A stretch of DNA of 63,671 nucleotides from Parcubacteria group bacterium (GCA_012514175.1 JAAZAU010000011.1:1-63671), one strand, 5' to 3'. Shown: positions 1,923 through 45,074, numbered from the stretch's first letter. Made by a program: numbers and translations. Notes: a model not told the origin generated them from the sequence alone.

Positions 1923-1937
1923 AACGAATAAATAAAA

Positions 1938-2471: not shown

Positions 2472-2476
2472 TTACA

Positions 2477-2824: not shown

Positions 2825-2838
2825 TAATAAAATTAATT

Positions 2839-3465: not shown

Positions 3466-3471
3466 AAGAAA

Positions 3472-3894
3472 ATGCAATTTCATAATCTAAAAAAGAATAA
3501 ATCAAACAGGAAAGCCAGACAGATTGGTCGCGGTGGTATTCGTGGTAAGACCTCAGGCAGAGGCACCAAGGGTCAAAATGCCAGAAGTGGTAGAAAAAAG
3601 AGACCAGAAATGCGAGATATCATAAAAAGATTACCAAAACTTCGCGGACGTGGGAAAAATTCTTTGAAATCTAGATTAGAAAAAGCTTTTCCAGTAAAAC
3701 TTTCTGTGTTGGACGAAAAATTCGCTACTGGCGCAGTTATAAATCGCAAAGTTCTTTTAGAAAATGGTATTATTGTTAAAAAAGCAGGGAAATTACCAAG
3801 GGTGAAAATTTTATCTGATAAAAAAGATATTAAAAAGAACTTCCAGTTTGAAGACGTGGAAGTGTCGGAAGCGGTTAAAAAAGTGTCAGCTTAA
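3472..3894 (+). CDS. rplO: 50S ribosomal protein L15
   Basis: GRGGIRGKTSGRGTKGQNARSG motif. It follows S5 directly, with no L30 ORF in the 6-nt gap. Confidence 0.93.
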   Translation: MQFHNLKKNKSNRKARQIGRGGIRGKTSGRGTKGQNARSGRKKRPEMRDIIKRLPKLRGRGKNSLKSRLEKAFPVKLSVLDEKFATGAVINRKVLLENGIIVKKAGKLPRVKILSDKKDIKKNFQFEDVEVSEAVKKVSA

Positions 3895-15292: not shown

Positions 15293-17935
15293 ATGGAACG
15301 AGCACCTACCCCAAACAATCTACCATCGGGTTTTGAAAATTGGCCAAAGTGGAAGCAAAGAGAAGAATACAAAAATCTTGAGACAAATTTGCTTAGAAAA
15401 TCTTTAGATATCCCTACGGAAGATAATAGATCTGTGGAAGAAATTTTTGAAGAAATGGAAAAACTTAATCCTTACAATCCATATAAAACTGTTAGAGATA
15501 GAGCGTATCTAGAAAATAGATTAAAAGAGCTTGAATCAGAAGGCTCCCTTTCTTCAGAAGAACAAGCTCAGGATTTTTTAGATTCATCTCCTGCGATTGA
15601 AGAAAACCAAGAATCGTTAGATGTTAAACCAGAAACCCAAAGCGAAAAAACATCCGCAGAATTTCAATATGAAAATCAAGCTGAAACAAAACCCGATTTT
15701 TACGCAAAAAATTATGTAGCAGATTTTGGTGGAGAAGAAACTGTTCGTTATGAACCAACTGAACAAAGTGACGAAGATTTAGAAATTTTGGAGCAAAAGA
15801 AAAAAAGCGGTGAAGCTATTAATGTTATAGACAAAAGAAATTTTGATTTATTTGAAGATGACAAAAAAGTAGGTATTCAAAATGATCAGAAACCTGAAAG
15901 CAACGATTCTCGTATAGACGATAACAAAGAATATGTGAGTAATGCTGAATATGAATTAAACAGAGAACAGGAAGAGCAAATTAAAGAGCGGGTAATAGAG
16001 ACGAAAGAAGATGTTTATAGGTGGGAAAATAGCGAAGAGCAGGACAATTTGGAGAATTTTAGGATGGATAGAATTTTGGCGGAAGACAGTTTTAAACGGG
16101 GGCAAATAAAACAAGATACATTAAATACTTCAATTGAAAACTATAAATACGCTTTGGGCGCGGCGGCAGATAAGATAAAAGAAAGTTTAAGGAAGGAGGC
16201 GGGGGAAAATCTTGATGCTGTAAAAGAAGCGCAATTAAGATTAAAAATAAACAGAACCATTTTTGAAGAGCTTGTAGAGAAAGAAAACGAAGTTTATTTA
16301 GCGTTTTTAAGAAATGAAAGAGCCGAAACTACACAAGATAAAATTATTGAGGGTTTGAAAAATGCTTTAAGTGATAAAGTAACGAAGTGGTATGAAGGAC
16401 TTTCAGAGGGGCAAAAATTTGCTCTAAATTTTGGTTCTGCTGGACTCGTGGGTTTAACTTTTGATGCGGTTAAGGATTTGAAAGAAGCTGAGGAAAGAGA
16501 GATAGAAGAATTAAAAAACTCTAATCTTTCTGTTAACGAAAGGGCTGAAAAGCTTTTGGAAATAAAAAATAGATATAAAAAAGACAGAATAAAAAGAACC
16601 TTGAAACAAATGAAAGAAAACACCGTGGGGGCTGGCAAAGAGGTTCTTATGGAGTTGGTTAAAAATGTTGAAGATCGGCTTCCTTCAAGAAGAGGTTATG
16701 ACCCGGGAAATATAAACTCACCAGAGTTTCCACCCGATGTTGCTCCAGAGCAAATGTCTTTTGACCCATCGCTTTTAACACATAAAGTGTTGGAAGGAGA
16801 ATCCACTTGGCAGATTTTGGAGAGTATTCTGAACCATAATGATCGGTTTGAAAAAATGTCTGAAGCTCAAAAAACCTATGTTCTAAGTTATTTAACTAAT
16901 AAAGCTATTCAAAATCCTGAACAATATGGTTTAAACAGTGATGGTTCTATAAGTATGGGTAGCAAAACGGACTTTACAAAAATGTTTGAAGACACTAAGG
17001 AGATCAAAACTGTTTTTAACAAGGCTGAGCAAACCATAACTCCAGGCAGTCCTCAAGAAGAGTCAATTCTTTCAAATAATCAAAAAATAAAAGATTGGGT
17101 CAAGGGTCGCTCTCAAGAAGTTTTAGATGAGAAAACTGTGCCAGAAATTTTAAGTGATAAACCGATTCCAAGTGTGGAAACTAAGCCTGAGCCCGACGTT
17201 GTTGAACAAACAGGGGGACCGCCCGAAACCATTGAGTCAGAAAGTGCAGAAAAAGTGGATCCAATATCACAAGAAGCTCAAGAGGAAGTAAATAAATTAG
17301 TTGAACAAGTAGATTTAGCAAATGGTAATGTTGACAGAGATGGGCGGTTGATTGACACAGATCAAACAACTGAAGCAGAAACAGACTCAATAGAAGACGG
17401 TGACGTTGATGAATCGGTTAACATGGATCAGGTAGCTAAAGAATTAGCAGAAGCAAAAGCAAGGTTAGCGTTTCTAGAAGATGCTAAAAAAAATAACAAC
17501 AATAATAATGATGTAGAAAATTTATTTAATTCCAACAAAAAATATGCTGAAGACCTTGAAGAGGCTTTTAATACAGAAATAGATGAGTTTTACGGTAAAA
17601 GGGGTTTGTTGGGATTTGGTAAAGAGAGAGGAGTAGACACACTTGAATGGAAAGAGATATCAAGATTGCCAGTTGTTAAGGTTATAGATTATTATACTGG
17701 TGACTCTATGAAATCTGATTTGCATCCAGAAATTGTAAGAAGGTTTTCAGAATCACCAAGACACCAACGTTTTATAGAGCATATGGATGGACTTATAAGA
17801 CAAACTGGCGGATTGGTAAAACCTTTTGAGAATGAAAGTGTGGAACAGTTTGTAAAACGTCTCGGAGGTTATCTCTTAAGGACCCACTTGCAAAAAATGC
17901 ATCTTTCTGAAATAGGTCTGAAAGAAACGGCATAA
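15293..17935 (+). CDS. large acidic hypothetical protein (880 aa)
   Basis: Long uninterrupted ORF, E/D/K/N-rich, with no recognisable catalytic motif. Confidence 0.6.
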   Translation: MERAPTPNNLPSGFENWPKWKQREEYKNLETNLLRKSLDIPTEDNRSVEEIFEEMEKLNPYNPYKTVRDRAYLENRLKELESEGSLSSEEQAQDFLDSSPAIEENQESLDVKPETQSEKTSAEFQYENQAETKPDFYAKNYVADFGGEETVRYEPTEQSDEDLEILEQKKKSGEAINVIDKRNFDLFEDDKKVGIQNDQKPESNDSRIDDNKEYVSNAEYELNREQEEQIKERVIETKEDVYRWENSEEQDNLENFRMDRILAEDSFKRGQIKQDTLNTSIENYKYALGAAADKIKESLRKEAGENLDAVKEAQLRLKINRTIFEELVEKENEVYLAFLRNERAETTQDKIIEGLKNALSDKVTKWYEGLSEGQKFALNFGSAGLVGLTFDAVKDLKEAEEREIEELKNSNLSVNERAEKLLEIKNRYKKDRIKRTLKQMKENTVGAGKEVLMELVKNVEDRLPSRRGYDPGNINSPEFPPDVAPEQMSFDPSLLTHKVLEGESTWQILESILNHNDRFEKMSEAQKTYVLSYLTNKAIQNPEQYGLNSDGSISMGSKTDFTKMFEDTKEIKTVFNKAEQTITPGSPQEESILSNNQKIKDWVKGRSQEVLDEKTVPEILSDKPIPSVETKPEPDVVEQTGGPPETIESESAEKVDPISQEAQEEVNKLVEQVDLANGNVDRDGRLIDTDQTTEAETDSIEDGDVDESVNMDQVAKELAEAKARLAFLEDAKKNNNNNNDVENLFNSNKKYAEDLEEAFNTEIDEFYGKRGLLGFGKERGVDTLEWKEISRLPVVKVIDYYTGDSMKSDLHPEIVRRFSESPRHQRFIEHMDGLIRQTGGLVKPFENESVEQFVKRLGGYLLRTHLQKMHLSEIGLKETA

Positions 17936-25847: not shown

Positions 25848-25922
25848 GGTGACTATGGTGTAGTGGTAACACGACAGCTTGTGGAGCTGTTTTCGCCGGT
25901 TCGAGTCCGGCTAGTCACCCCA
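25848..25922 (+). tRNA. tRNA-His(GUG) with encoded G-1 and CCA
   Basis: G-1 + GTGACTA/TAGTCAC acceptor with C73 opposite G-1, anticodon arm ACAGC-TTGTGGA-GCTGT, T-arm GCCGGTTCGAGTCCGGC. Confidence 0.9.
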
Positions 25923-27497
25923 TTCGAGAATGAGTGTTGCAAAAGCAACATTTCGTGCCTCAACAGAGGCGTATTCTCTCAGTCCTAACCTCTCAAATTC
26001 AGCCCTAAATTCAGGGTATGCTTCTTTGATTGGTTGAAACCATTCATTGCCGGTAATGAAGACTTTGCCGTCTTTGATGTAGAAGTTTTGACCTAGTGCC
26101 GAGAATATCTCACGCTTTTTCTGAAGATTACCTGTAACGAACTCTTTTCGGGCATAGCAGGCGAAGTTAAATACCTGTTCAGTAAGGTCCAGCCACTTTG
26201 AGGCACGTCCCTCGGTTTCGCGGAGTTTCGCTTGTAATCGGGCAATTTTATCTTTCAAAATGTCACGTTCTTTCACAAAAGTCTCATCGTCGATAAGATC
26301 GCGGTAACGCATCTTGGTGAGGTTATCGAGCTCAGTCTGCGATTCTACGACAGTCTTGTGTTGCATTTCATAGATCTTGGTACGGTCCTCGATTTCTTTA
26401 TCATTATTGCGATTCAAAGCCTCAATAGCCCAAGTTTGGAATTCAGGAAGGATTGTATATTCCTCAAGCAAGAGTTCGATCTGCTGTTCAAGATCAGAAA
26501 GGGTGATGGGGTTTCGCTTAGGACATGGCACGCCTTTCTTGTGGCCGGTGCAGTGATAGTAGGTGTACACTTTTTTCTGACCCGTTTTCTTTATATCCTT
26601 AACCTTTTCAGTGCCGGTATACATTGCACCGTATAGTCCACATCGAATAAGCCCGGTGAATGCAAACTCATGGGTTTTGGCTCGTGGCTTTTCAGTCCTA
26701 TCAAAGATAGCTTGGACCCGATCGAACTCCTCAAGAGTAATCATCGGCTTGTGATTGCCCCTGTATACTTTCTTGCCCCAGTGAAAGTTTCCGGTATAGA
26801 AAATATTGTTGAACATTTTATAGATCACACTCGGTGCCATCTCTACTCCACCGCTATGTTTGCTCTTTAGGGACCGATAGCCCCACTCTTTATTCGCAAT
26901 CTCCGCAATTTTCTTTGGTGTGTAATTGCCAGTAAGCATAAGGTCCCACATCTTACGGACCAAATGGAAACGTTCAGGATCAGGCAGGATTATATGCTCA
27001 AGTCGCTCGTTGATATAACCAGCAGGCGCCTTCGAAGGGAACCAACCACGATCAGCTTTGCCATGCATGCCTCGCTTGGTATTTTTGCGTAGCTCAATAA
27101 TGAACTGATTAGCCATGCCACTTTCAACACTGAAAAGAAGAACGTTATCATCAGGCAGATATTCTCGTTCCATTGTTTGAATGGATTCGATAATGCCTTT
27201 CTGAAGCATCCAGCTAAGCTTTCCGCTATCGATAGGGTTACGAGCGAGGCGATTGATCTGCCAGCAGAGTATTCCTTTTGCTTCGCCTTTCTCAATACGC
27301 CGAAGCATATCGTTAAAGATTGGTCGGCCTGGTTGCTTGGCCGACTTTGCTTCGGTTAGAATCTCTTTGACTGAAATACCAAGAGAGTTGGCTCGCTCTT
27401 TGAGCCTATTCACCTGGTCCTCGATTGATTGCTCTTGTCGATCCTCTGATTCAGAAGACTTACGAGCATACATGAAATATTGAACGTTTGTCGCCAT
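25911..27497 (-). CDS. large serine recombinase (integrase)
   Basis: N-terminal resolvase domain YARKSSESEDRQEQSIEDQ (Ser nucleophile), recombinase domain, Cys-rich zinc-ribbon region (CGLYG...YYHCTGHKKGVPC) and coiled coil. 528 aa. Confidence 0.88.
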   Translation of the reverse strand: MATNVQYFMYARKSSESEDRQEQSIEDQVNRLKERANSLGISVKEILTEAKSAKQPGRPIFNDMLRRIEKGEAKGILCWQINRLARNPIDSGKLSWMLQKGIIESIQTMEREYLPDDNVLLFSVESGMANQFIIELRKNTKRGMHGKADRGWFPSKAPAGYINERLEHIILPDPERFHLVRKMWDLMLTGNYTPKKIAEIANKEWGYRSLKSKHSGGVEMAPSVIYKMFNNIFYTGNFHWGKKVYRGNHKPMITLEEFDRVQAIFDRTEKPRAKTHEFAFTGLIRCGLYGAMYTGTEKVKDIKKTGQKKVYTYYHCTGHKKGVPCPKRNPITLSDLEQQIELLLEEYTILPEFQTWAIEALNRNNDKEIEDRTKIYEMQHKTVVESQTELDNLTKMRYRDLIDDETFVKERDILKDKIARLQAKLRETEGRASKWLDLTEQVFNFACYARKEFVTGNLQKKREIFSALGQNFYIKDGKVFITGNEWFQPIKEAYPEFRAEFERLGLREYASVEARNVAFATLILEWGD

Positions 27498-27563
27498 AAG
27501 TGGGTAATATTAATTAATAAAGGGTGTTGCTGTGTTACCTTCTTCGTGGGCTGATTGCAAGTC

Positions 27564-28913
27564 TTAGAAGGGCACATCTTCCGCCTTTATCTCACCCACA
27601 TGACTATCTACCCCCGACTCATACGCACTATTTATTTTCTCAGTTTGCTCAAGCTTTCTAATGGCCGTCGTAGGATATGTCAGCAGTTGTCGGCGATCAT
27701 TCGGGTCTGGTTCTTGGAAGATAAGCCCGGCAGATTCGATATTTGGTAGGTAGTCATAGCGGAGTCTGAACATGCCGAGGTTACCGCCATAGAAGTGGGC
27801 ATATTGCTTAAGCATGTCTTGTCTGGTCACACCGATCTTCTTTTCTTCAGGCACAGGATCGCCAAATTCATCTACCTGGTCCCGATTCCATAAAGGCAGA
27901 ATGATTTGCTGGTAGAACTCATAAAGATACGGAGATATTTCAAGCTCTTGAAAGAGTGATATCTTGTCCCAGATTTCAAAACCGGTATCAATATCAAACT
28001 CAGAGGCGTACACCGTTGAGCCTTCACGCTTACGATGCCAAACATTGAGAAGGGTGACTGACTTGATGATGGAGTAAATACGTTTGATGTCGCGTTGATT
28101 TCTCGGTTGAGGATTTTTGATATGAGCCAGGAATCTATCCTGAACCAATTTCTCATTTTCGATAATAATTTCATCAATACCTTCAGCTTTGATAGCTTGA
28201 ATGCGTTTTATAAGAGCCTTACGGAGAGGATTTTCATTGAGTTCTTTGTAGTATTTCTTTTTGTCAGACTCCTTACGAGAAGATTGATGGATACCGGCAA
28301 AGATTTTCTCCTGATTTATCTCGGGACTAAGAAGAAGGAAACGAGTCATCTCTTGCTGGTCCATTTTGGCATTGGCTGAGCAGAATATAACTGAAGGAAA
28401 GCCTCTCACAACAGCCGTCTTTGTTTTGGTTCCACCTTTCTGAGTCTTGTCAGTAATCTTGTGCCTTGTTTCTTTCTCATCGTGAGATAGAAGTGATCGC
28501 AGTTTAGTAAGGAGTGTCGCATGAGGCATATCAAGGAAAATGATGATCTTTCTTGATAGGTCAATGAAGTGCTCATTGGTCTCTTTTTTGTACACACCAG
28601 TCTCATGGAGAAATGAAGTTGGCGATGCGCCAGCAAGTTTCATCACATCTTCCTGTGGAAAGAGGTGAGATATCTCAAGCGGTATAAAACTTTTACCAGA
28701 AGACGATGGTGCGTTAAAGCTGATATTGAATTGTGCATTGTCGGTATATGCCGCAAGCATGGCAAGAAAGGTGATAATTTTATTGCCATCATCTTTCTTG
28801 ATAGTAAGGTCCAATACTTCCCGGACCTGATCGAGAGTGATTGGTTCGGGCAGAGTAATGCGGTCCTTAATCTTGTCGAGTTCCTCTTTGATTGTAAGTG
28901 ACTGTAGGTTCAT
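27564..28913 (-). CDS. P-loop NTPase, putative replication/helicase-like protein
   Basis: Walker A NAPSSSGKS and Walker B-like IIIFLDM. 449 aa, lying next to the recombinase. Confidence 0.45.
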   Translation of the reverse strand: MNLQSLTIKEELDKIKDRITLPEPITLDQVREVLDLTIKKDDGNKIITFLAMLAAYTDNAQFNISFNAPSSSGKSFIPLEISHLFPQEDVMKLAGASPTSFLHETGVYKKETNEHFIDLSRKIIIFLDMPHATLLTKLRSLLSHDEKETRHKITDKTQKGGTKTKTAVVRGFPSVIFCSANAKMDQQEMTRFLLLSPEINQEKIFAGIHQSSRKESDKKKYYKELNENPLRKALIKRIQAIKAEGIDEIIIENEKLVQDRFLAHIKNPQPRNQRDIKRIYSIIKSVTLLNVWHRKREGSTVYASEFDIDTGFEIWDKISLFQELEISPYLYEFYQQIILPLWNRDQVDEFGDPVPEEKKIGVTRQDMLKQYAHFYGGNLGMFRLRYDYLPNIESAGLIFQEPDPNDRRQLLTYPTTAIRKLEQTEKINSAYESGVDSHVGEIKAEDVPF

Positions 28914-29127
28914 TGTTTTGTAATTTATGTGTTAGTAATGGAAGTGTTTCGAGTCGTCGCTTATGAATAAGCTCATGCTCTTCTTTGGTCATTGGCTTGT
29001 AGACGAGTTCCATCAAGCGCAAAAGCTGAGTCCCTTTTGCAAGAGCCTCATCTTTGCTTATATCCATTCCAAAACGAGCCTTGTAGAGCTCTTGGAATTT
29101 CTTGATGTCTGCGTCCAAAAGCAACAT
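28867..29127 (-). CDS. small hypothetical protein (paralog of 37487..37741)
   Basis: Shares the F.E....G.DI.D.A......LL.LM..VYKP..K pattern with the 84-aa ORF at 37487. Confidence 0.5.
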   Translation of the reverse strand: MLLLDADIKKFQELYKARFGMDISKDEALAKGTQLLRLMELVYKPMTKEEHELIHKRRLETLPLLTHKLQNNEPTVTYNQRGTRQD

Positions 29128-29129
29128 AG

Positions 29130-29405
29130 CTATTCCGAGTAAAGCTTGTTCTTCAGAGCTTTAATGCTGTCGAACATAGAACGAGCCTTCACCTCGACCT
29201 CGTCAGTGAAGTATTTGTTGGCGTACTCCTCGATACGAGGCTCACGCTTGAACATAAACAAGGCTTTGCGCGGGTTATCGCGGTCCAGAGATTCAAGTTT
29301 GAATCCGAGACACAGCAAAAAGCTGGCACAGCCCAAGTCGTATGTCGTAAAGACATCTGATGGATCGGAATCTTCCGATGACCATCTGGTTTTCTTTTTG
29401 ATCAT
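29130..29405 (-). CDS. small protein, DUF5659-like
   Basis: TTYDLGCASFLLCLGFKLESLDRDNPRKALFMFK...ALKNKLY pattern, recalled from the DUF5659 family common in mobile elements. Confidence 0.5.
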   Translation of the reverse strand: MIKKKTRWSSEDSDPSDVFTTYDLGCASFLLCLGFKLESLDRDNPRKALFMFKREPRIEEYANKYFTDEVEVKARSMFDSIKALKNKLYSE

Positions 29406-29540
29406 GGGTAATCGAATTAATTGGTAATGAATGCTCTAAACAAAAAGCCAAAGCATTGTGCTTTGACTGTATTCGTCCGAGGGGAATAAATGGACGGAAC
29501 GATTATGGGTTTATTGTGGGCTTAATGTGCCCGAGTGTGA

Positions 29541-30110
29541 TCAGGGTGCGAGCTTGTAGCCAACGCCTTTGATGTTTTTGATTATGTCCTTATTTTTAGC
29601 TTTCTTTGCGGGCAAAATGCCGAGTGCCTCTTTGATATTGCGTATCACAAAAGTCAGGTTGCGCTTGGTAGTTTTGGAAACAGATTCGCCAAGAATATCG
29701 GAGTAGGTTATCTGATTGCCCTTGGCCGTAGCGAGTTTGAGAAGAGTTGCGAACTCCTGGCTCTTCGGATTGAAAATAGCTTGAACAGTATTCAAACGGA
29801 CCGTAGCAGTAACTTTGTCGATAGAGAGAGTATTGGCCCCGATTGTGACGGAAATGAGATCGTCATCAGTCTTGATGGGCTTTACGTAATCATCAAAAGT
29901 ACTAATAACCCAGAAACTTACAGCTTTCCCGATAACATTGAGATCCTTGATAAGACCCTCCTGTTCAAGCTTTTTCAAGACGAGTATCTGTTCACCTGTA
30001 GAAAATGAGAGTGTGTCTTTGAGCTGGAACTTCAAAATACCTGCCGGACTTATCTGTGCTCGTTCGTGTATTAAATCTTTGATGAATTGTAATTTTTCTC
30101 CAGCCTTCAT
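29541..30110 (-). CDS. winged-helix (OmpR/PhoB-type C-terminal) DNA-binding protein
   Basis: C-terminus ...FVIRNIKEALG......IKNIKGVGYKLAP. ORF trimmed to MKAGEKL at 30110, because the upstream part overlaps the divergent ORF. Confidence 0.55.
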   Translation of the reverse strand: MKAGEKLQFIKDLIHERAQISPAGILKFQLKDTLSFSTGEQILVLKKLEQEGLIKDLNVIGKAVSFWVISTFDDYVKPIKTDDDLISVTIGANTLSIDKVTATVRLNTVQAIFNPKSQEFATLLKLATAKGNQITYSDILGESVSKTTKRNLTFVIRNIKEALGILPAKKAKNKDIIKNIKGVGYKLAP

Positions 30111-30203
30111 GAAACGGTAATGGTAATGTTCCCTTAATCTACTCTTTTTTCGTAGATTTTCCAATATAGTGAGCTGGTATGTGGGGTAGTAGACTTCTTC
30201 GGA

Positions 30204-31906: not shown

Positions 31907-33094
31907 ATGCAACCACTTATAAAATGGCCTGGCGGCAAATCAAAAGAATTTGAATACATAAAAGATCTTATTCCTCACCATACACGTTATGTTGAGCCGT
32001 TTTTTGGTGGTGGTGCCGTTTTCTTTCAATTGAAACCAAAGAAAGCAATAATAAATGACATTAATCTTGAGTTAGTGAACTTTTATAAGTTTATTAAAGG
32101 TGAAGAAGATAAAAAATCTTTTGAGAAGGCCCTGTATGATTATGTCGACAATTGGGAAAAAATCCCTAAATATATTGCCATATTTGAAGATAAGCTAACT
32201 AAGCTGTATTTGGATTTTAAACACGACAAGATTTCCAAGGAAGATCTTAAAGTGACCGTAAATAAATACCTACAGTCTGAAGAGAAAAGATTCAATGGTC
32301 TTTTTCATGAAGACTTTTGCCTCGACGAGAAAAACTTGTTAAGACAGATAATTTCTAATCTTGTCTCTAAGCTCGGCAGAATAAAGAAAATCGAAAAAGA
32401 ACGTGGAAAGATTGGTGATGGTGATTTACATAAAAACATAGAAACCGCCTTCCGTAGTGGTTTTTATATGCATTTCAGAGATGTAATGAATTATAATGGC
32501 TCACGTTTTAAAACCACTCTAGCTAAAAAAGTTGCGAATTATTATTTCATAAGAGAATTTTGCTACGCGTCAATGTTTAGGTTCAATGCGGCTGGGCATT
32601 TTAATATACCTTATGGTGGCATTGGATATAACAATAAAGATTTTAGAAGTAAGGTGGATTATATTCTCAGTAAAGATGTTGAAGACTTATTCAAAAATAC
32701 AGAGATAGAAAATACTGATTTTGAAAAGATCTTTAAAAAAAGTAAGCTGAGTGAAAATGACTTTATATTTCTAGATCCACCATATGATACCGACTTTAGT
32801 GATTATGAAAAACACTCTTTTGGTAAAAAAGATCAAGAGAGGCTTGCTGAGTGTTTGTACACTACAAAAGCTAGATTTATCTTAATAATTAAAGACACCC
32901 CATTTATTTCAAGTTTATATAAGAACAAGAAAGGAATAAACGTTGTCTCTTTTGATAAGACTTATCTTTATAACGTAAAAGGTCGAAACGATAGAGAGGT
33001 TGAACATCTGATCATCTATAACTTCAATGAAAAAATATCTGAACAAAATCATACATGGAAATTGCCTAGAAGTGTTGAAAGGGTTTCCAGATAA
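31907..33094 (+). CDS. Dam-family (D12 class) DNA adenine-N6 methyltransferase with large insertion
   Basis: KWPGGKS, EPFFGGGAVFF, NDIN and DPPY motifs. 395 aa. Confidence 0.85.
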   Translation: MQPLIKWPGGKSKEFEYIKDLIPHHTRYVEPFFGGGAVFFQLKPKKAIINDINLELVNFYKFIKGEEDKKSFEKALYDYVDNWEKIPKYIAIFEDKLTKLYLDFKHDKISKEDLKVTVNKYLQSEEKRFNGLFHEDFCLDEKNLLRQIISNLVSKLGRIKKIEKERGKIGDGDLHKNIETAFRSGFYMHFRDVMNYNGSRFKTTLAKKVANYYFIREFCYASMFRFNAAGHFNIPYGGIGYNNKDFRSKVDYILSKDVEDLFKNTEIENTDFEKIFKKSKLSENDFIFLDPPYDTDFSDYEKHSFGKKDQERLAECLYTTKARFILIIKDTPFISSLYKNKKGINVVSFDKTYLYNVKGRNDREVEHLIIYNFNEKISEQNHTWKLPRSVERVSR

Positions 33095-36949: not shown

Positions 36950-37471
36950 ATGAAAGAAATAACTACAATTAACTGGCATACCAAAGTCCTCAAAGAGCAT
37001 AAGAAAGAAATCACATACTCGGCGGCTTTCTCTTTTGTCGTGGCACTCGGATATCTTATCTGGTCCTATGCTCAAGGCTCGGTATTTGTATGGCAATCGA
37101 TAAGTCCGATAGAACAACCAAGTATTTTGGTCCGAGTATTTTACAGCGCATTGGCTTTTGCAGTCCCGGGCTATCTGCTCTACATCGCCGGATTTTATAA
37201 ATTCCTGCATAACGTCATCGTTCGAGGTTTGAGAGACTGGCAACTCTATAGGGGAATAAAGGCTGTGATCTGGGTCGGTCTTATATTTTTGATGTACGAA
37301 GTATTTGGAATTATCGTCAGTATCATGAACGCGGTCTTCTCATTTTTCTACAACCTTTTCAAGTTGGTTTTATACATTTCACCGGGAATCGGAGTATTCC
37401 TGATTCTCACCATAGTTGGCGCATATGCCGTAGTTTTGGCCAAAAAGAGGCTTAAGTTACCCCATAATTAG
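36950..37471 (+). CDS. 4-TM membrane protein
   Basis: Starts 4 nt after the HEPN-like stop. Four long hydrophobic helices. 173 aa. Confidence 0.55.
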   Translation: MKEITTINWHTKVLKEHKKEITYSAAFSFVVALGYLIWSYAQGSVFVWQSISPIEQPSILVRVFYSALAFAVPGYLLYIAGFYKFLHNVIVRGLRDWQLYRGIKAVIWVGLIFLMYEVFGIIVSIMNAVFSFFYNLFKLVLYISPGIGVFLILTIVGAYAVVLAKKRLKLPHN

Positions 37472-37486
37472 CCCCTAAATGCCCTT

Positions 37487-37741
37487 GTGTACGCTTTTCG
37501 GGAGAGGTTCGGGGGTAATTACAAACATATGATTTCAAAACAAGCGTTAGAAGAATTCAAAGAGATTTGGCGACAGGAAAACCCTGGCCAAGACATCGAC
37601 GATGCAACCGCAATGGATCAGGCGGTAGCTTTGCTTACCCTCATGGATACGGTCTATAAACCAGTGAAGAAAGATTGGCTCGAAAAGTACAAGAACGAAG
37701 TGACCAAAGAAAATAGTGATGACAAGGGTGGGGTAAAATAA
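37487..37741 (+). CDS. small hypothetical protein (paralog of 28867..29127)
   Basis: EEFKEIW....PGQDIDDATAMDQAVALLTLMDTVYKPVKK aligns with the 86-aa ORF at 28867. Confidence 0.5.
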   Translation: MYAFRERFGGNYKHMISKQALEEFKEIWRQENPGQDIDDATAMDQAVALLTLMDTVYKPVKKDWLEKYKNEVTKENSDDKGGVK

Positions 37742-38373
37742 TTGACCGCACATTATTACGGAAAAAACAGGTAGCCTGATAACGCCTGATCACACCTGTT
37801 AACTCCTGACCGTTAATACGGTCGAAATACGGTGATCAACCTGATAGATCAGGAAAAGATCAGGTGAACATGTCCGGTCCAAAATTACGGGAGTTGCGGT
37901 CACTGTGAAGTAATCCGAAATAGTGAATGAGACTGTGGGGTAAGCGGTTCTCGGTTCCCGTAATAACGGGAAATTAACGGGAAGGCACTTTTGCATGAAA
38001 TAGTGAGTGAGAGTGTAGGGTAAAGACTGATAAAACAGTTAAATAACAGTCTTTGACTTATCGATCACGAATTACAAAACAGAGTAGGTGCCCGCCGTTA
38101 AAAAACGGTGAAAAAACGGGTGCGAGCCACCATTAGAAAAAGGTGAAAAAATGGGCAGACCAACTTTCAGCAGAAATTACGGGGGTTCGATAGAATACAG
38201 AGTAGAAGTGTAGGGTAAAGCTGCGATTGTAATTTAAGTGCAACAAAACTCTCTGTTGTTAATACAACGCAAAAGCAACGTGTGTCCACCTGCAAATGCA
38301 GGTAAAATGCAGGAGTAATTATTATTTAGATATAGTGAGCGCGAGGGTGGGGTAAATGTTATAATGGTCACAA
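37742..38373 (+). repeat. repeat-dense non-coding region (iteron-like)
   Basis: Four copies of a 24-nt motif ATAGTGAG.G.GAGTGTRGGGTAA (37920, 38000, 38195, 38332). At least 9 copies of an A/T-rich + ACGG(G) decamer. CCTGAT/ATCAGG repeats, including the palindrome CCTGATAGATCAGG (37840..37853). Confidence 0.8.
38319..38355 (+). repeat. left copy of ~37-nt direct repeat
   Basis: TTATTATTTAGATATAGTGAGCGCGAGGGTGGGGTAA, about 33/37 identical to 44768..44804. Confidence 0.85.
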
Positions 38374-38772
38374 ATGACTATTTTTGAAGATGTAAAAAAG
38401 CTTAATTTGCCTATTGGTCAGTATGCAGTTGTCGGCAGTGGAGTGATGTCTGCTTATGGTATACGACCGCACCACGATGTTGATCTAATTGTGACCAAGA
38501 ATCTTTTTGTAATCTTAAAGAATAGTGGCTGGCAAAGTGTTCCGAATAGAAATGGTGTTCTTAAAAGTGGTAACTATGAAGTTGATGCTGATTATAAATA
38601 CAGGGAATATCAGCCGGACCACGATGAATTGATTAGAAATGCGGAAATTATTGAGGGAGTACCATTTATAAGACTCAGTGAGCTGATTAAATTTAAGACG
38701 GCTCTCGGTAGGGATAAGGATAAAAAAGATATTGAGCTCATAGAGCAATATTTGATAAAACAGAAAATTTAG
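38374..38772 (+). CDS. minimal nucleotidyltransferase-fold (Pol-beta superfamily) protein
   Basis: VGSGVMSAYGIRPHHDVDLIV (GS...DxD NTase signature). 132 aa. An extended -10 (TGTTATAAT) lies just upstream. Confidence 0.6.
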   Translation: MTIFEDVKKLNLPIGQYAVVGSGVMSAYGIRPHHDVDLIVTKNLFVILKNSGWQSVPNRNGVLKSGNYEVDADYKYREYQPDHDELIRNAEIIEGVPFIRLSELIKFKTALGRDKDKKDIELIEQYLIKQKI

Positions 38773-38784
38773 ACTAATATCGTT

Positions 38785-39399
38785 ATGATTATGAATACAG
38801 GTAAATTACTTTTAACTTCAACGGGTCTATCCTCTGAAAATATCGCAAAAAGATTTCAGAGTTTTTTTGCTGACCCAGGAAGCCAGGCTGTTGCAATAGT
38901 AACGACGGCTGCAGAAGGTAAGGATCAAAATAAATATTCTCAGCTTGCAAAAAAGCAGTTTGAAGAAATGGGATTCACTAAGATTGATTTTGTTGACCTT
39001 GAGGCAGAGCTAGACAGAGACTTTTCTTCATACGGTGTTATTTATGTATGTGGCGGAAACACCTTCAAGCTTCTTAAATTCGCTCGTGAGGCAAATTTCA
39101 AAACCTCAATCGAGAATCTCCTAAGTCGGGGTGGTGTATATGTGGGCGTTAGTGCTGGAAGTATTATTGTCGGTCCATCAATCAATATAGCTAATGAAGT
39201 CGAACCTGACCCGAATGATATCGGCCTAGAAGATCTCACTGGCTTTAATATCACCGATCTTATTATTCTTCCGCACTATTCTCCAGAGGTTGAGGAAGAA
39301 ACAAAAGTTTTTGAGAAAAAATATAATGTTATTGTGGAGAGATTAAATAATTCTCAGGCTGCTCTCTTAGAAAACGGAGAAAAGATTATTGTTGAATAA
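38785..39399 (+). CDS. peptidase S51 (dipeptidase E-like) family protein
   Basis: VIYVCGGNTFKLLKF ... VYVGVSAGSII (Ser nucleophile context) ... LPHY. 204 aa. Confidence 0.7.
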   Translation: MIMNTGKLLLTSTGLSSENIAKRFQSFFADPGSQAVAIVTTAAEGKDQNKYSQLAKKQFEEMGFTKIDFVDLEAELDRDFSSYGVIYVCGGNTFKLLKFAREANFKTSIENLLSRGGVYVGVSAGSIIVGPSINIANEVEPDPNDIGLEDLTGFNITDLIILPHYSPEVEEETKVFEKKYNVIVERLNNSQAALLENGEKIIVE

Positions 39400-39404
39400 A
39401 AAAA

Positions 39405-39428
39405 GGAGACACACTTGCGTATGTCTCC
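39405..39428. terminator. hairpin between convergent genes
   Basis: GGAGACA-10 nt-TGTCTCC between the S51 peptidase (+) and the 251-aa ORF (-). Confidence 0.45.
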
Positions 39429-39431
39429 CTG

Positions 39432-40187
39432 TTAGAGCAACTTCTCAATCTTACCCATCAGATTCTTCACCCTTTTCCTTTTGGAAAGTTCAAGAGCGAT
39501 TTCAAAGATAGGTCGGTCCAAAGACCGAAGGAGAATTGCTTGTCGTTCAAGCGAACGGAACCCCCGGCAGTACTGACGGCTACGTGCAAACGCTAGCCTG
39601 ATCATTGCGGCTGTAACATCCGAGAGGCATAACTCTCGCTCGATAATTGCATCTTCATGCAATCTTTCAAGCGTTGAGAGTTTTTGCCTTATCTCCTCAG
39701 TACACAGTTCAACAATTTTCTTCGAGAGCGAGATGGGATAGGGAACAAGTAGTTCCCTTAAGCGGTCACTGATATCGGTTACGTCATGTAAAGTTTCAGC
39801 AGTAGCTAAATCTCCGCACAACGCTTCCGGCAACCAGTACCCGGTAGCCCATGGGCGATGTTGACCACCCAAATTCTTGCCCTCAATCCACTCTTCGACC
39901 TGCCTGACGAGCAGAGCTGCATCGCAAACTGCGATACCTCCTGTACTCGTCGGCAGATCAAAGCGTACGCTATCGTCGCACACGAAGAAGTTTCCATCAG
40001 GCCATCGTTTCTTCAGCAAGGATTCGATGATAGGCGAATATGTTTCAATTCTGCCTTCATCGCAACCTGCTAAGAGATCAATCTTGCCTTTTGAAGAGTT
40101 CCTCTTCAGTCCGACGTGTAAGAGCACTTTCATGCCCTGCATCTCACGCAGAACGTGAGTTAGATCGGAGATCACACTACTTTTCAT
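39432..40187 (-). CDS. hypothetical protein (last gene of the AKR-rSAM-AlaRS-like operon)
   Basis: 251 aa in the GC-rich region. Its start overlaps the upstream stop as ATGA. No motif recognised, other than a weak NTase-like G..x8..D segment. Confidence 0.6.
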   Translation of the reverse strand: MKSSVISDLTHVLREMQGMKVLLHVGLKRNSSKGKIDLLAGCDEGRIETYSPIIESLLKKRWPDGNFFVCDDSVRFDLPTSTGGIAVCDAALLVRQVEEWIEGKNLGGQHRPWATGYWLPEALCGDLATAETLHDVTDISDRLRELLVPYPISLSKKIVELCTEEIRQKLSTLERLHEDAIIERELCLSDVTAAMIRLAFARSRQYCRGFRSLERQAILLRSLDRPIFEIALELSKRKRVKNLMGKIEKLL

Positions 40188-41302
40188 AGTGTCTCCTTTC
40201 CGCGTCTTGATTCCTCAAGCCCGATTAAGGCTTTCGGAAATCCGAATGTGGATGCCAGATACTCGATGTCTGATTCAGTAAGAGGACCATTCCTGCGGGA
40301 AACGAGTTTTTGATACTCTTTTCTTCCACGTTCAAGCCCTTTCTCGAACTTTGACACCTCTTCAGCAAAAACGGCTTGCACCGCTTCGGCCGAAGACCAT
40401 TGATTTCCCGATATCACAACAAACTCATGGAACGGAATCGACGTTTGCTGACAGAGGATGAAAGCCTCTCGGATGAGTTTCCGAAGGACGTAATCCGCCG
40501 CCTTGTTTCCAGGCCGAAGCCCTTGTGATACCAAGAGAACCGCTGCTTTGCCTAAATCGGCTAAGCGACACATGGTGGTTTGATCCTGAACTTTTGATCG
40601 TTCAGTGAGAGTACTGATCACACCTCTCCAGTTCGAGTTTTCATAATCGCTTCGGCTGCATTCGATTGCAGTGACGATACGATCAATACTTGCTCCTGAG
40701 TCGGCAGCGATCATCTCTAACGAAGATTCAAAGAGAACTTCTCCCTGAAACTCAGTAAAGACCAAGTTCCAAAGTTCCATCGACTTTCCTGTGCCTGGAT
40801 TTTGCCAGACGATCTCCGTACGAACGCCACATCGGTTCCGAGTCGGGGTATAGGTGACATTTCCGTCATTACTAACGGTCCTGACACCTAACCTTTCCCA
40901 GATTCTTTGCGACGTTGCATCTTTCGGATGCACTGTAGCTGACAGCGTGTTCGAACTAATGCCTAAGCACGCCGTCAGATATCGCCAGGCACTCTCGATC
41001 ATTACATCCTTCACTTCAGCTTCCTTGCCCTCATAGAGGGAAAAGTGGCCGAGCATGTCGAATGCTAGATGATGCCTTCCTGAACGACCGATTTTCTCCC
41101 ATCCGTCAGTTCTCAAGCAGGTTTGTACTGAAACAACGCGGCTGCTCTCGTGGTTTTTTCCATGAGAGATCACGTCTTCAAATACAACTCCACCTGAGAT
41201 GTTGAACAGGAGTTTCGGATTTGAACTTACGATCGGAACGCTGTCCTGCCACTTGAAACCGAAGGTCCCGAAGTGGCGTCTGATTTCATCATACGACTTC
41301 AT
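40184..41302 (-). CDS. alanyl-tRNA synthetase catalytic-domain paralog (no editing/C-Ala domains)
   Basis: CLRTDGWEKIGRSGRHHLAFDMLGHFS, ELWNLVFTEF, DSGASIDRI, ADYVLRKLIREA and STFGFP align with AlaRS core blocks. 372 aa. Confidence 0.7.
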   Translation of the reverse strand: MKSYDEIRRHFGTFGFKWQDSVPIVSSNPKLLFNISGGVVFEDVISHGKNHESSRVVSVQTCLRTDGWEKIGRSGRHHLAFDMLGHFSLYEGKEAEVKDVMIESAWRYLTACLGISSNTLSATVHPKDATSQRIWERLGVRTVSNDGNVTYTPTRNRCGVRTEIVWQNPGTGKSMELWNLVFTEFQGEVLFESSLEMIAADSGASIDRIVTAIECSRSDYENSNWRGVISTLTERSKVQDQTTMCRLADLGKAAVLLVSQGLRPGNKAADYVLRKLIREAFILCQQTSIPFHEFVVISGNQWSSAEAVQAVFAEEVSKFEKGLERGRKEYQKLVSRRNGPLTESDIEYLASTFGFPKALIGLEESRRGKETL

Positions 41303-42525
41303 GCAGAACCTCCCATTGCCAAGTGTTTGAATACAGTCTGCCTGACTGCGTAGGTGAACTTGCTCATCTCAGGATGAGTAACAAGTCCGCGGTTAATATC
41401 CCAACTTACAACGTGAGCTGGAATCCCGAGATTATCCAATATTGCCTGAGCGCGTTCGATGTTCATGGAATATGCTGATCCATGAGCACAGATTTGCCGT
41501 TGAGCAAGAGGACAACGAGACTCCTCGCACTCGTGTCTGGCAAACGCCTGAACCGAAGTGATGCTTGGAATCTTGAGCATCCGAGTAAGCGCGCATGAGG
41601 ACTTCAGGAATACAGGAACGCCAGGGAAGTGTTCTGCACTCAAGGAAAAGATAAAGTCTATCAAATCCTGAGGCAGCATCTTCACATTGTCGTTCCGAGG
41701 AATGTTCGGCATGGGGAGTTTGTGAATCTCCACCAAACCATTCTCGATACCTTCAGTCCAACGCAATCCTCCGGGGATGATCATATCAATGACATTGCCG
41801 TAGTGCTTTTTTACCCAGAGCATCATCATTTCAATGCGGTCCCTGTTTCCGCTCCATTCAGGAACGATCGGGCGCATATACCATGCGATGGTGGCACCAG
41901 CTTCCTTTGCTTCTTCAGCGTTAAGAAAACGGTTGTTGTGAGCAGGTTCAATCGTATCAGGATTGTCTGCCCAGCACAGAGACAACATCAGACCTCGCGT
42001 CGCATTTGTGATGCGGGCGATGTCGAGCTTTCTTCCTTTCGGAACTCCGCCCTTGGTAACGATCCAGAAGGGATTTTGAAGACCGCGGCGCACGAATGCA
42101 TCCATGATCTCAAATGTGCTTTCTGTAACCGGTCCAGGTGCAAACGGTTCAGTGCTTGCTGTTCCGATGCTGATGATTGTCTCGCCAGCAACGAAAAACG
42201 GATGTTTGATCAATTCATCGACGATTTGATCGACGGTGAACTGATTGCGCCGTCTCGGTCTTTTTGGCATTGTGCCTTGATCTGCAAGATCTTGATGGGT
42301 GTCTTGAACGTGGCAGTATCTGCACTGCCAAGAACATCCAACCCACAGATCAATACTCAGCGAGCTGTTAGACACGCTGACGCACGAGAGCGGATGATTG
42401 CTATCCGGTACAAGAACTCCGTACGTATATTCACGAACAGAAAACTCGCGGCCGGTAGTCATCCCATTGATCGTTACGCGCGGTTCCGAATTGGCAGCCG
42501 CTACGTATTCTTGTTTTGAATTCAT
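41299..42525 (-). CDS. radical SAM enzyme
   Basis: VGCSWQCRYCHV (CxxxCxxC). Trimmed to MNSKQEY at 42525, which has a GGAG RBS and an ATGA overlap with the upstream gene. 408 aa. Confidence 0.75.
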   Translation of the reverse strand: MNSKQEYVAAANSEPRVTINGMTTGREFSVREYTYGVLVPDSNHPLSCVSVSNSSLSIDLWVGCSWQCRYCHVQDTHQDLADQGTMPKRPRRRNQFTVDQIVDELIKHPFFVAGETIISIGTASTEPFAPGPVTESTFEIMDAFVRRGLQNPFWIVTKGGVPKGRKLDIARITNATRGLMLSLCWADNPDTIEPAHNNRFLNAEEAKEAGATIAWYMRPIVPEWSGNRDRIEMMMLWVKKHYGNVIDMIIPGGLRWTEGIENGLVEIHKLPMPNIPRNDNVKMLPQDLIDFIFSLSAEHFPGVPVFLKSSCALTRMLKIPSITSVQAFARHECEESRCPLAQRQICAHGSAYSMNIERAQAILDNLGIPAHVVSWDINRGLVTHPEMSKFTYAVRQTVFKHLAMGGSA

Positions 42526-43259
42526 GTGACAACTCCTTTCAAGTGGTTGATGTTGCGTGATATTTGTTCTTCTGTGGTCATACCGATGACAACAGATGTT
42601 CCGAGCTGCATTGCATCTTTGATGAGCAGCTCGACTGGATGAAGGGTAAGTATTTTTCCCTGACAGAAAAGACTTCTCAAGAGAATCTCCTTTTTCATGG
42701 CGATCAAAGAGGGAAGCTGATTCAGTATCCATCTTTGATTCGGATTAAAAGGGGCTTCTACAACATCAATGTAAGGCAAAGCCTCATCACTGATGACTGA
42801 TGAAAAATCATCCGGTAGAGAAATTCCTACTCTTCGAGTCGTATTCCCACTCTTCATCTTTTGCAAGTGTTGAATAATGGGGATTGCATCTGACGTCCAC
42901 GAGGGAAGCCAGTTGTGCAACAAGACGGTGTCGACCTGTGTTCTCTTGAGCCGGTCCAATGAACCTTCAACACTTCGATCAAGATGATCTGGTGTATAAA
43001 ATTCACTGATCGGAGTACGAGTTTTAAGGTCGGGTTTTTTGATTGCTGGGATTTTGGTCACGATGACCGCATCTCCCGGCAACCATGTGCCAATCATCTC
43101 CTCAACTTTTCCTCCACCATAGACAGCCGCCGTATCAAAACGACGAATGCCCGAACTGATGGCGAAAAGCAGAAGAGATTCAATGTAGTCGGGGGGCAGC
43201 TTTTTGAACTGTCCTCCAAGCTGCCATGTGCCGAAGTAGAGTCGTTCAAACCATTTCAT
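42522..43259 (-). CDS. aldo/keto reductase family protein
   Basis: LYFGTWQLGG..., IRRFDTAAVYGGGKVEEMIG, and ...LLHNW blocks. 245 aa. Confidence 0.7.
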   Translation of the reverse strand: MKWFERLYFGTWQLGGQFKKLPPDYIESLLLFAISSGIRRFDTAAVYGGGKVEEMIGTWLPGDAVIVTKIPAIKKPDLKTRTPISEFYTPDHLDRSVEGSLDRLKRTQVDTVLLHNWLPSWTSDAIPIIQHLQKMKSGNTTRRVGISLPDDFSSVISDEALPYIDVVEAPFNPNQRWILNQLPSLIAMKKEILLRSLFCQGKILTLHPVELLIKDAMQLGTSVVIGMTTEEQISRNINHLKGVVT

Positions 43260-43425
43260 GTTTTTCTCCTAATTTTGAGGTTGTTAAAGAGCCTTCAGTT
43301 AAAATTGTTTCTGGCATAAAACTACAACAAAATCAGCTCTAGGTCAACCGATGTCTTGCCAATCATTAAAATAAATGTTAATCTATTTCCGGATTTGAAA
43401 CCTTAACAAAAGAAAGGAGATAAAC

Positions 43426-44717
43426 GTGAGTTTACCTTACAAGACAACAGAGGAAGTGCGTCAGACGTTTCTGGGGCATTTTCTTAAGCGCGATCACCAG
43501 TTGATCGAGCAATCGGGGATTATTCCAAGGAATGATCCAACACTTATGTTCATCAACTCGGGGATGGCTCCGCTCAAACCCTATTTTACGGGCCAAGCGA
43601 CACCGCCATATCCGCGTTTGACAAACGTGCAGGACTGCATCCGTTTCGTCGATGTCGAAAGCGTCGGCATTCCTATCATGGGACGAACTTTCGAATGATG
43701 GGGTCATGGTCTTTCGGTGATTATTTCAAAGAGCGAGCCATTGAGCTTGCCTTCGAACTGATTACTGAAGGTTTCGGGATTCCGGCCGAACGATTGTCCG
43801 CGACGGTATTCATGGCTGATGAAAGTCTGCCGGGAGTACCGAGTGACGAAGAGTCAGCTCGCATCTGGGAGAAATTCCTGCCGCGAGAACGCATCATCGG
43901 TCGACCGCCAGTAGACAACTTCTGGGGTCCTGCTGGCACGAGTGGACCTTGTGGTCCATGCACCGAAGTCTTTTTTGATCGAGGCGAAGAATTCGCTGAG
44001 AAAAAAACTGATGACGTGCTTGTTCCTGGGCGGCACATCGAGATCTGGAACGCTGGAGTGTTCATGCAATACTTCAAGGATGAGCAAGGGAATTTTTCTC
44101 CGCTCCCCATGAAGTGCGTGGACACTGGCGCTGGTCTCGAGCGCTTCGCTATGATTCTTCAGGGTCGGGCTTCGATTCACGAGATCGATCAGTATGAACC
44201 ATCCTACCAACTCATCAATCAGCGCATTGGTGATACGGCGTGGACTCGGATCATTCTTGATCATATCAAGACATCGATTCTGATGATCAGGGAAGGAATC
44301 GTCCCGAGCAATACTCGGGAAGGTTACCTCCTGCGTCGTGCGCTTCGGCGTGCGATGATCGGAGTCTTCCTGCGAGGTATCAATCTGACCATTCTCCAGG
44401 AGTGGGCAGACTCCCTCAGTGAAGTGATTGATAATAAGGATCTGACCGTTCGTCAGAAATCTGTTATCGCTCACTGGCTTAGCGAGGAACGCGACAGCTT
44501 CGAGAAACTGATGCATCGCAGCAGGAAGTATCTGGACAAGATCGTGACGGCAAAGGAGTTGGATGCGCAACACGCGTTCACCCTGAAGACCGGCATGGGC
44601 ATTCCCGAAGATCTCCTGGAAGAATTCTGTGCTCGTCATGGGATTCCGTTTCCGAAGGTCGAGTTCCTCCGGCTTATCGAAGAGCACAGGAACATCTCCC
44701 GCCGTCCGAAGAAGTAG
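43426..44717 (+). pseudogene. second AlaRS catalytic-domain paralog, interrupted by a 1-nt frameshift
   Basis: ORFs 43426..43698 and 43695..44717 join as ...GRTFE|MMGSWSFGDYFK (AlaRS FEMLGNFSFGDYFK motif). Downstream blocks are GPCGPCTEVFFD, EIWNAGVFMQY, DTGAGLERF and GYLLRRALRRA. Confidence 0.8.
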
Positions 44718-44767
44718 TTCTTTCAGTAGCAAACAAGCCCACCTCGTTTACACCGGGGTGGTCTTTT

Positions 44768-44804
44768 TTATTATTTAGACATAGTGAGCGCGGGTGTAGG
44801 GTAA
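44768..44804 (+). repeat. right copy of ~37-nt direct repeat
   Basis: TTATTATTTAGACATAGTGAGCGCGGGTGTAGGGTAA. It marks the end of the GC-rich cassette. Confidence 0.85.
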
Positions 44805-45074
44805 CAATCTTTGAAGCTTGGAATGTAGATCGTAGCGTCATCGATTTTCTCAAATATTTTTCTGACCCGCGCGACCACGCGACCCCAGTGATTAAAGACG
44901 TTTTGTGCTCAAAAAAATAAGTCTTAACTTCAATAATCCACAATATAATCTGTGGATTAACTAGGTTTTGCTATAATAATTAAGCGGGCTCTTATTTAAG
45001 ACCTAAAAGTCAAAAAAAGAGTTTCCGTTATTATAATTAATCTAAGTATCAAATCGCATATACGAAAATATGTT

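Follow-up and report, generated by a model that had tools for sequence, protein, structure and literature searches.

A direct-repeat pair, probably a duplicated motif unit, brackets a cargo insertion in an integrative element of a Parcubacteria group bacterium

What places two similar 37-nucleotide (nt) sequences, in the same orientation, on both sides of a 6.4-kb gene block in a bacterium with a 635-kb genome? The Patescibacteria (candidate phyla radiation, CPR) have tiny genomes, and their gene acquisition is little understood. The block lies in a 63,671-nt stretch from a Parcubacteria group bacterium (GCA_012514175.1, JAAZAU010000011.1:1-63671). The whole stretch is called the window here and is contig 10 of a 14-contig genome. 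The original prediction on this DNA read the repeats as attL/attR-like scars of a nested or tandemly accreted element, or as cassette boundaries of an integron-like capture system. It is probable that the pair is the duplicated last unit of an array of a short motif, M, at the integrase-proximal right end of a ~19-kb integrative element, whose genes include those for a large serine recombinase (LSR) and a Rep protein of helicase type. The 6.4 kb between the repeats was inserted as cargo into a slot that is used repeatedly. The repeats are cargo-slot boundaries of a new CPR element family; they are neither the attL/attR of a self-mobile nested element nor parts of an integron.

The left copy, TTATTATTTAGATATAGTGAGCGCGAGGGTGGGGTAA, is located at 38319-38355 and the right copy, TTATTATTTAGACATAGTGAGCGCGGGTGTAGGGTAA, at 44768-44804, both on the + strand. 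The predicted match at 33 of 37 positions was reproduced, with four differences and no similarity beyond either end. A search for the 25-nt core that allowed three mismatches gave only two matches in the window, the pair itself, while 0.00 were expected from shuffles. The gene content described between the repeats was borne out by Pfam and by open reading frames (ORFs), the NTase-fold ORF itself having no Pfam hit. As predicted, the Pfam scan of 38356-44767 found no recombinase gene, and the GC content, 0.45-0.49 over 39-45 kb, is 0.33 from 45 kb on.

The genome-wide motif search proposed with the prediction confirmed the pair but not its isolation: it represents two of the seven copies of a family. 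The consensus of M, obtained with a repeat finder and a degenerate pattern, is 23-27 nt long, ATAGTGAG-N7-GTGGGGTA(A/G), also written ATAGTGAG-N7-GTGGGGTAA. The seven copies, all on the + strand, are at 30166, 37713, 37920, 38000, 38195, 38332, and 44781. No copy was found in the genome outside the island at 25.9-44.9 kb, and the control with the reversed pattern gave no match. With a position weight matrix (PWM), true copies score at least 23.6 bits and the background at most 20 bits. The left repeat, which is the last array unit and immediately precedes the cargo, has the highest score in the genome (40.9 bits). The best background hit (20 bits) is a weak M copy on the - strand (27635-27607), inside the 3' end of the Rep gene and ~110 nt upstream of the integrase start. 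It is co-directional with the Rep and integrase genes and kept in sister elements.

The two blocks of M, ATAGTGAG and GTGGGGTA, are dissimilar, and M has no internal dyad. Two of its three forward frames contain stops (TAG-TGA; TAR at the end of M), so ORFs either end in M or read through it in one frame. M copy 1 (30166-30188, + strand) lies between the gene for a winged-helix regulator on the - strand and the first cargo slot on the + strand, and the homology of relatives breaks 1-13 nt past it, at 30190-30201. The array proper (37713-38217, + strand) contains the copies at 37713, 37920, 38000, and 38195, whose intervals include conserved hairpins and A-tract boxes, in a non-coding stretch of 630 nt. 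The spacing is irregular (207, 80, 195, and 137 nt). The 80-nt spacing of two copies is kept in at least 10 elements, and unit-sized indels are seen within the array between relatives. Two tandem 29-nt boxes at 38092-38155, CCGCCGTTAAAAAACGGTGAAAAAACGGG and CCACCATTAGAAAAAGGTGAAAAAATGGG, are conserved in sister elements; they are rich in A-tracts, which would suit DNA bending or an origin.

Relatives were collected with P0001, the 449-amino-acid (aa) P-loop protein that is the helicase-type Rep marker of the family (27564-28913, - strand). Its C-terminal segment, 'DPNDRRQLLTYP', is winged-helix-like, and its longer relatives carry a Toprim primase domain. The search returned 18 loci in metagenome-assembled genomes of Patescibacteria (Paceibacteria, Nomurabacteria, Vogelbacteria, and genomes labelled 'Saccharibacteria'). 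Most are 75-98% identical, and one is 50% identical. The longer loci all have M at the same relative places, and a search for the right end found M followed by a conserved ~80-nt end in 12 of the 18 genomes.

These relatives include the empty site that the prediction had proposed to look for. In L034r, 17546-17806 corresponds to window 38094-38354 and 17771-17888 to window 44768-44885, with one copy between. This single copy in L034 (G048), TTATTTTTTAGATACAGTGAGCGCGGGTGTGGGGTAG, is preceded by a homologue of 38094-38318 and followed by a homologue of 44805-44885. The elements of the window and L034 both end with ...CGCGACCACGCGACCC, beyond which the host sequences diverge. The 38.3-kb flank is joined to the 44.8-kb flank by a single copy in at least 14 other elements; this state was seen in G039, G041, G052, and G054 and in L084, L087, L091, L094, L096, L097, L099, L107, L121, and L123. 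The single-copy relatives thus define window 38356-44767 plus one 37-nt unit as an insertion relative to the common state of the family, in which a single unit separates the non-coding M array from the 83-nt right end. The homology of sister elements stops exactly at 38355. G004, from another genus of the same family, has four M copies and shows 84% nucleotide identity to window 25915-30201 and 72-79% to 37465-38355; its homology ends right past M copies, at 30201 and 38355. Between close relatives, break points of insertions, deletions, and replacements coincide with M copies.

The same terminal slot holds different cargo in other elements. In G049 and G046, two copies are ~7.0 kb and ~8.4 kb apart, respectively, and a cargo unlike that of the window is followed by a second copy of the same 37-40 nt and then by the right end. 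The cargo of G049, G046, and G004 contains thioredoxin/DsbA-like and aminotransferase genes, which Pfam identified in G004. In this genome the cargo begins as in the other two, and the left and right repeat copies are on separate contigs. Across the data, at least six different sequences follow the terminal M. Many metagenome contigs break near this position, which fits strain heterogeneity and limits the view of several cargos.

Insertions at other M copies were also observed. In L039r, two copies of M1 enclose a 5.6-kb insert with genes for a peptide deformylase, a ZIP transporter, and an ECF sigma factor. Two array copies in G041 are separated by a 2.7-kb insert that includes a reverse transcriptase gene (RVT_1; L064 6547-7581) and a 237-aa partner; at its 3' end, the RVT_1 gene runs into an M copy. 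Behind the first M of L025-L027 and G004 there is a copper cassette (CsoR, DUF305, CopA), whose flanking repeat measures only ~10 nt, AGCTAGACTT. This slot-1 cassette (L025r-L027r 12640-12700; L012 ~3760-3810) opens with TTGACA-N17-TATACT, whose spacer contains a palindrome, ATATACCCCTAGGGGGTATAT, CsoR-operator-like in appearance. Cargos in general are multi-gene blocks of 2-8 kb with genes on both strands and apparent sigma-70-type promoters of their own, TTGACA-N17-TATACT or TGTTATAAT, directly after M. No recombinase was found in the other bracketed cargos either. Two further arrangements have M in tandem. L101 has M-M without cargo. G040 has a tandem mini-element (L071 = G040:C11, reverse-complement 1914-3760), in which a right end is followed by 60 nt, M, two ORFs, two M, and a second right end.

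Empty sites and unrelated cargo between copies of the same 37-40 nt unit thus uphold the insertion and cassette-boundary part of the original prediction, but not its integron-like system. Against the latter speak the lack of an IntI-type tyrosine recombinase and of an attC-like dyad in the motif, and the promoters that the cargo brings along. The attL/attR reading was not supported, as the cargo lacks a recombinase and the same gene module occurs elsewhere without the repeat.

The right copy has a second role. The right end of the element (44805-44887, - strand) codes for WGRVVARVRKIFEKIDDATIYIPSFKDC of the episomal integrase and ends in the crossover core ACCCCA (44882-44887). When it is joined to the left end at ACCCCA (25917-25922 / 44882-44887), the integrase frame runs 36 codons further, RVVARVRKIFEKIDDATIYIPSFKDCYPTPALTMSK, and stops at a TAA at 44771-44773; a second TAA is at 44768-44770. 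The predicted integrase is 563 aa at the circular junction, versus 528 aa for the integrated gene. One - strand frame is open in each of the 24 distinct right ends and always stops at the same place, and the 36-residue tail is conserved among them. The other two frames contain stops in 4 of 24 and 22 of 24 right ends, and the variable columns by codon position number 12, 13, and 31. The variation in the M spacer of right copies is synonymous. The open frame and its stop indicate that the 37-nt repeat provides the last ten codons and the stop of the episomal integrase; the right copy codes on the - strand for YPTPALTMSK and tandem stops. The terminal unit therefore has a double use: it is a full M site on the + strand, and the integrase tail with its stop, read across attP, on the - strand. 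Since attP lies inside the ORF, the integrated integrase is shorter and ends in host tRNA sequence. An excised circle would be expected to encode the 563-aa form. No degradation-tag motif was identified in the 36-residue tail.

M is not restricted to this family. A metagenome scan with one M subtype gave 42 loci. Beyond family members, M was found at the 3' end of Toprim-primase/P-loop/winged-helix Rep genes that share the C-terminal '...DKRKxLIYP' with P0001, and M at rep gene 3' ends was seen in five lineages. In three of the non-family Rep loci an LSR gene is next, matching the order Rep, weak M, and integrase in the window. Two unrelated tailed phages (L077/G057 32906-32967; L083 9816-9879) each have exactly one divergent inverted M pair, between early/replication genes and late/structural genes. 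No proteins common to the two phages and the element were found. The presence of M in unrelated rep-integrase elements and phages and its absence elsewhere in the chromosome indicate that M is a cis element of several kinds of mobile DNA and not a host signal; GTRGGGTA is not clustered elsewhere in the genome. The original prediction had named a common promoter/leader element elsewhere in the genome as one finding that would speak against it. This holds in part, as the motif is multi-copy within the island and occurs in unrelated elements and two phages, and as the right copy is coding sequence of the integrase tail.

The function of M can be judged only roughly. A transcription-linked protein-binding site, promoter or operator, is the leading candidate, at somewhat under an even chance, because the orientation of M follows the local gene direction in every case, the - strand copy included. 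The main alternative is a replication iteron, a possible but unlikely function. The position of M at rep 3' ends and the A-tract boxes in the array are iteron-type features; the irregular spacing, the gene-following orientation, and the presence of M in phages without this Rep are contrary to it. A role as recombination site is rather unlikely, and some other function has a small chance. Several specific candidates were examined and rejected. As a sigma-70 promoter, M would have blocks only ~9-12 nt apart; a consensus scan finds no promoter in the array, and the cargo promoters are canonical. For a T7/T3-like promoter on the reverse strand (CTCACTATA), the specificity positions are variable, the orientation would be senseless for most copies, and no gene for a single-subunit RNA polymerase was seen. 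The lack of GTRGGGTA clusters speaks against a host DnaA box or another host regulon site. A phage cos/pac site shared with a helper does not fit either, as the phage pair lies 1.6-3.4 kb upstream of terminase genes and the phages have no proteins in common with the element.

How the terminal unit came to be duplicated may be explained from its double use. Only insertions that leave an intact copy on each side would keep both the M site on the array/cargo side and the integrase tail, and this constraint would account for the identical 37-40 nt on both sides of two unrelated cargos. The most likely source of the duplication is recombination between M copies, through unequal or Campbell-type exchange that involves co-resident elements, tandem forms, or mini-circles; a dedicated cassette integrase has less in its favour. 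The tandem forms in G040 and L101 support exchange between M copies. Campbell-type entry was also sought in gene order, as the six-gene module described below has the same circular order as the window cargo with its linear break between different genes. This argument was dropped; it is weak because L136 has the window-type seven-gene order with no M on the left.

Several observations weigh against a duplicated array unit formed by such exchange. The duplicated unit begins and ends at the same positions around two unrelated cargos, which could also mark a precise enzymatic reaction. RecA-type exchange would be near its lower limit with a 37-nt unit of ~89% identity. The first gain of a flanking M by a chromosomal module is left unexplained. 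The flanking repeats in slot 1 vary, ~10 nt in L025r-L027r versus ~45 nt in L039r; such variation argues against a single precise mechanism, without demonstrating the proposed one. No -10 box was found at a fixed distance past M. The protein database contains forms of the integrase of 527-535 aa, and the 563-aa form was not found there.

The identical boundaries would also be accounted for if M were a site-specific recombination site, at which the LSR, perhaps in its long episomal form, or another enzyme inserts circular cassettes and leaves one M on each side. M-bracketed inserts at three M positions are in line with this explanation. The array adjoins attP and overlaps the integrase tail, M lies between rep and LSR genes in three other element lineages, and the single inverted M pair in two unrelated phages has full recombinase-site geometry. 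Block 2, TGGGGT, is moreover the reverse complement of the core ACCCCA. We nevertheless consider it distinctly unlikely. A single M without dyad symmetry is a half-site at best, the repeats of slot 1 (~10 or ~45 nt) show no fixed unit, and the rSAM module is found elsewhere without an adjoining M. The cargo has no attC-like 3' element, there is no tyrosine integrase, and no serine recombinase was seen near the phage pair. A state-dependent capture platform, in which only the excised circle makes the 563-aa integrase and this long form or a partner recognises M and inserts or exchanges M-flanked blocks, is improbable.

The order of events could also be the opposite, with both copies ancestral, each with its own function, and the one-copy elements derived by deletion of cargo between the repeats. 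Direct repeats of 37 nt promote deletion, and a fossil element (L134/L135) shows that deletions remodel these elements. But the one-copy elements are the majority and are spread across the whole diversity of the family (Rep 75-98% identical), while the two-copy elements hold unrelated cargos. A two-copy ancestor would need repeated replacement of the full cargo, and no conserved inner flanks were seen; this history is very improbable. Least credible is a transposon-type target-site duplication, or chance similarity. The direct repeats exactly abut the inserted DNA, as target-site duplications would. Their 37 nt, however, far exceed known target-site duplications, the copies have four differences, and there is no transposase or terminal inverted repeat. 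The repeat also belongs to a multi-copy family, with a chance expectation of 0.00. The duplication of the last array unit around inserted cargo is thus the interpretation that we prefer.

The host island extends over 25.9-44.9 kb, ~19 kb in total and about 12.6 kb without this cargo, and lies at tRNA-His. The tRNA-His(GUG) gene (25849-25922, + strand) is the integration target and contains the core ACCCCA at 25917-25922. The LSR gene (25911-27497, - strand; Pfam Resolvase, Recombinase, and Zn_ribbon_recom) overlaps its 3' end, and the stop codon of the 528-aa integrated form is within tRNA-derived sequence. Past the LSR, the - strand carries the genes for P0001, an 86-aa protein, a DUF5659 protein, and the winged-helix regulator. 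On the + strand, the order is restriction-modification and HigB/HTH-M78 genes, other cargo, a small DUF7695-related ORF, the M array, the bracketed cargo, and the last M. Genomes of the same genus align to the window only from ~45013 onward. In two of them (G024 and G026), tRNA-His is followed by the same downstream gene and the island is missing, which represents the unoccupied site. The LSR domain set, the tRNA-His junction with the shared ACCCCA core, and these naive sites identify the island as an LSR integrative element. An Rfam scan matched only tRNA and no other RNA family. The tRNA-His of the window genome, compared with L020 993-1067 and L016 3377-3450, is strongly unlike that of same-genus genomes and resembles the tRNA-His beside sister elements of other lineages. 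In L020, the last 19 nt of the tRNA are repeated 150 nt downstream, a sign of another past integration.

The cargo insertion (38356-44767, 6412 nt), annotated with Pfam, is missing from the empty-site relatives. Its genes encode a 132-aa NTase-like protein without a Pfam hit, a Peptidase_S51 protein, a 251-aa protein, a protein with an AlaRS-like catalytic domain (372 aa), a radical SAM (rSAM) protein, an aldo/keto reductase (AKR), and a second AlaRS-like protein, whose gene is in two pieces. These pieces (43426-44717) are ORFs of 90 aa and 340 aa, which correspond to a single 430-aa ORF in L126-L136; either a frameshift (pseudogene) or an assembly error can be the cause. An extended -10 box, TGTTATAAT (38357-38365, + strand), is a promoter-like element of the cargo itself right after the left repeat and is kept with the cargo in L133 and L134. 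An intrinsic-terminator-like hairpin (44739-44761, + strand) closes the cargo, and its T-run leads into the right repeat. No transposase or terminal inverted repeats were found at the cargo ends.

The rSAM homologues are 80-95% identical across many Patescibacteria. A six-gene module (rSAM, 372-aa AlaRS-like, and 251-aa genes; S51, 430-aa AlaRS-like, and AKR genes) occurs at differing chromosomal loci (L127/L128, L131) and as 5.9-kb contigs, and no M above 15 bits was found beside it in L126-L132. The 5.9-kb contigs (L126, L129, L130, L132; from many runs) end in inverted repeats of 29-48 nt, which consist of the leader, ribosome-binding site, and ATG common to the rSAM and AKR genes; AKR is inverted in the window version. 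The window-type block of seven genes, with the NTase-like gene, was found elsewhere in L133, L134/L135, and L136. L133 is a sister element in which the block is bracketed as in the window. L136 is a 7.3-kb contig with a weak M-like site (18.6 bits) 140 nt to the right of the block. In L134/L135 (9657-16400 of a 225-kb contig), tRNA-His, ~25 nt of the left end of the element, two array units, and one M precede the seven-gene cargo, while the integrase, Rep, and right end are all missing. This locus is a fossil, with the cargo left behind as the element decayed.

These results delimit an element family with a Rep 75-98% identical across several CPR lineages, a tRNA-His target, and at least two cargo slots edged by a 24-nt motif. 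The slots contain restriction-modification and toxin-antitoxin genes, copper resistance, thioredoxin/DsbA-like genes, a reverse transcriptase, an ECF sigma factor, and an rSAM/AlaRS-like module of biosynthetic type. Such widely differing cargo suggests that the element is a general vehicle for accessory genes in CPR. If the capture-platform interpretation were true, these bacteria, for which hardly any other gene-transfer machinery is known, would have an integron equivalent built on a serine recombinase. If the function of M is found, the spread of the motif in elements and phages and the switch of the integrase C-terminus would offer a simple way to test regulation and gene flow in a phylum whose members are difficult to cultivate.

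Parts of this arrangement have precedents. In mycobacteriophage BPs, attP lies within the repressor gene gp33, and integration alters the C-terminus of the product (PMC4557955). The element likewise has attP inside an ORF, but the affected gene is that of the integrase itself, an LSR, and not a repressor. The promoter-early stem-loop cassettes (PeSLs) of T4-type phages are demonstrated sigma-70 promoters and terminators in lytic phages (Arbiol et al. 2010, PMC2839356; Comeau et al. 2014, PMC4122927), and exchange between PeSL copies has been proposed to release and insert small circles (PMC2839356, PMC4122927). The recombination between M copies favoured here would be of this kind. M resembles them as a short regulatory-type motif in one orientation that flanks non-essential variable genes, with break points at the motif. 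The gene-following orientation and the terminator-like hairpin with its T-run before the right repeat are sequence hints of PeSL-like activity. Unlike PeSLs, M is not sigma-70-like, is in an integrative element of Patescibacteria, and has one copy doubling as integrase code.

Like the attI/attC arrays of integrons, the element has short sites in the same orientation beside a recombinase gene that delimit variable cargo. Integrons use the tyrosine recombinase IntI, whereas Pfam on all ORFs of the island gives the LSR as the only recombinase. The attC hairpin (R''-L''...L'-R') is at the 3' end of the cassette, whereas M copies are direct and without a dyad. Integron cassettes are mostly promoterless single genes in one orientation, whereas the cargos of the element are multi-gene, partly on the opposite strand, and with their own promoters. 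The array of the element is, unlike in integrons, at the 3' end of the LSR gene. The pdif modules of Acinetobacter plasmids have 28-bp dyads that are used by host XerC/D and flank cargo. They share with the element discrete cargo modules and short conserved boundary sites on different backbones, but M is asymmetric and not in the host chromosome. The element differs from SCCmec-type islands, phage-inducible chromosomal islands (PICI), and P4-like satellites, in that no capsid, packaging-interference, or conjugation genes were seen in it and in that its hosts are CPR bacteria with 0.6-Mb genomes. With these LSR elements and primase/helicase-Rep islands it shares a tRNA gene as integration site, the Resolvase, Recombinase, and zinc ribbon domains of its LSR, a Rep that combines a P-loop with a winged-helix end, non-coding DNA rich in repeats, and terminal accessory cargo.

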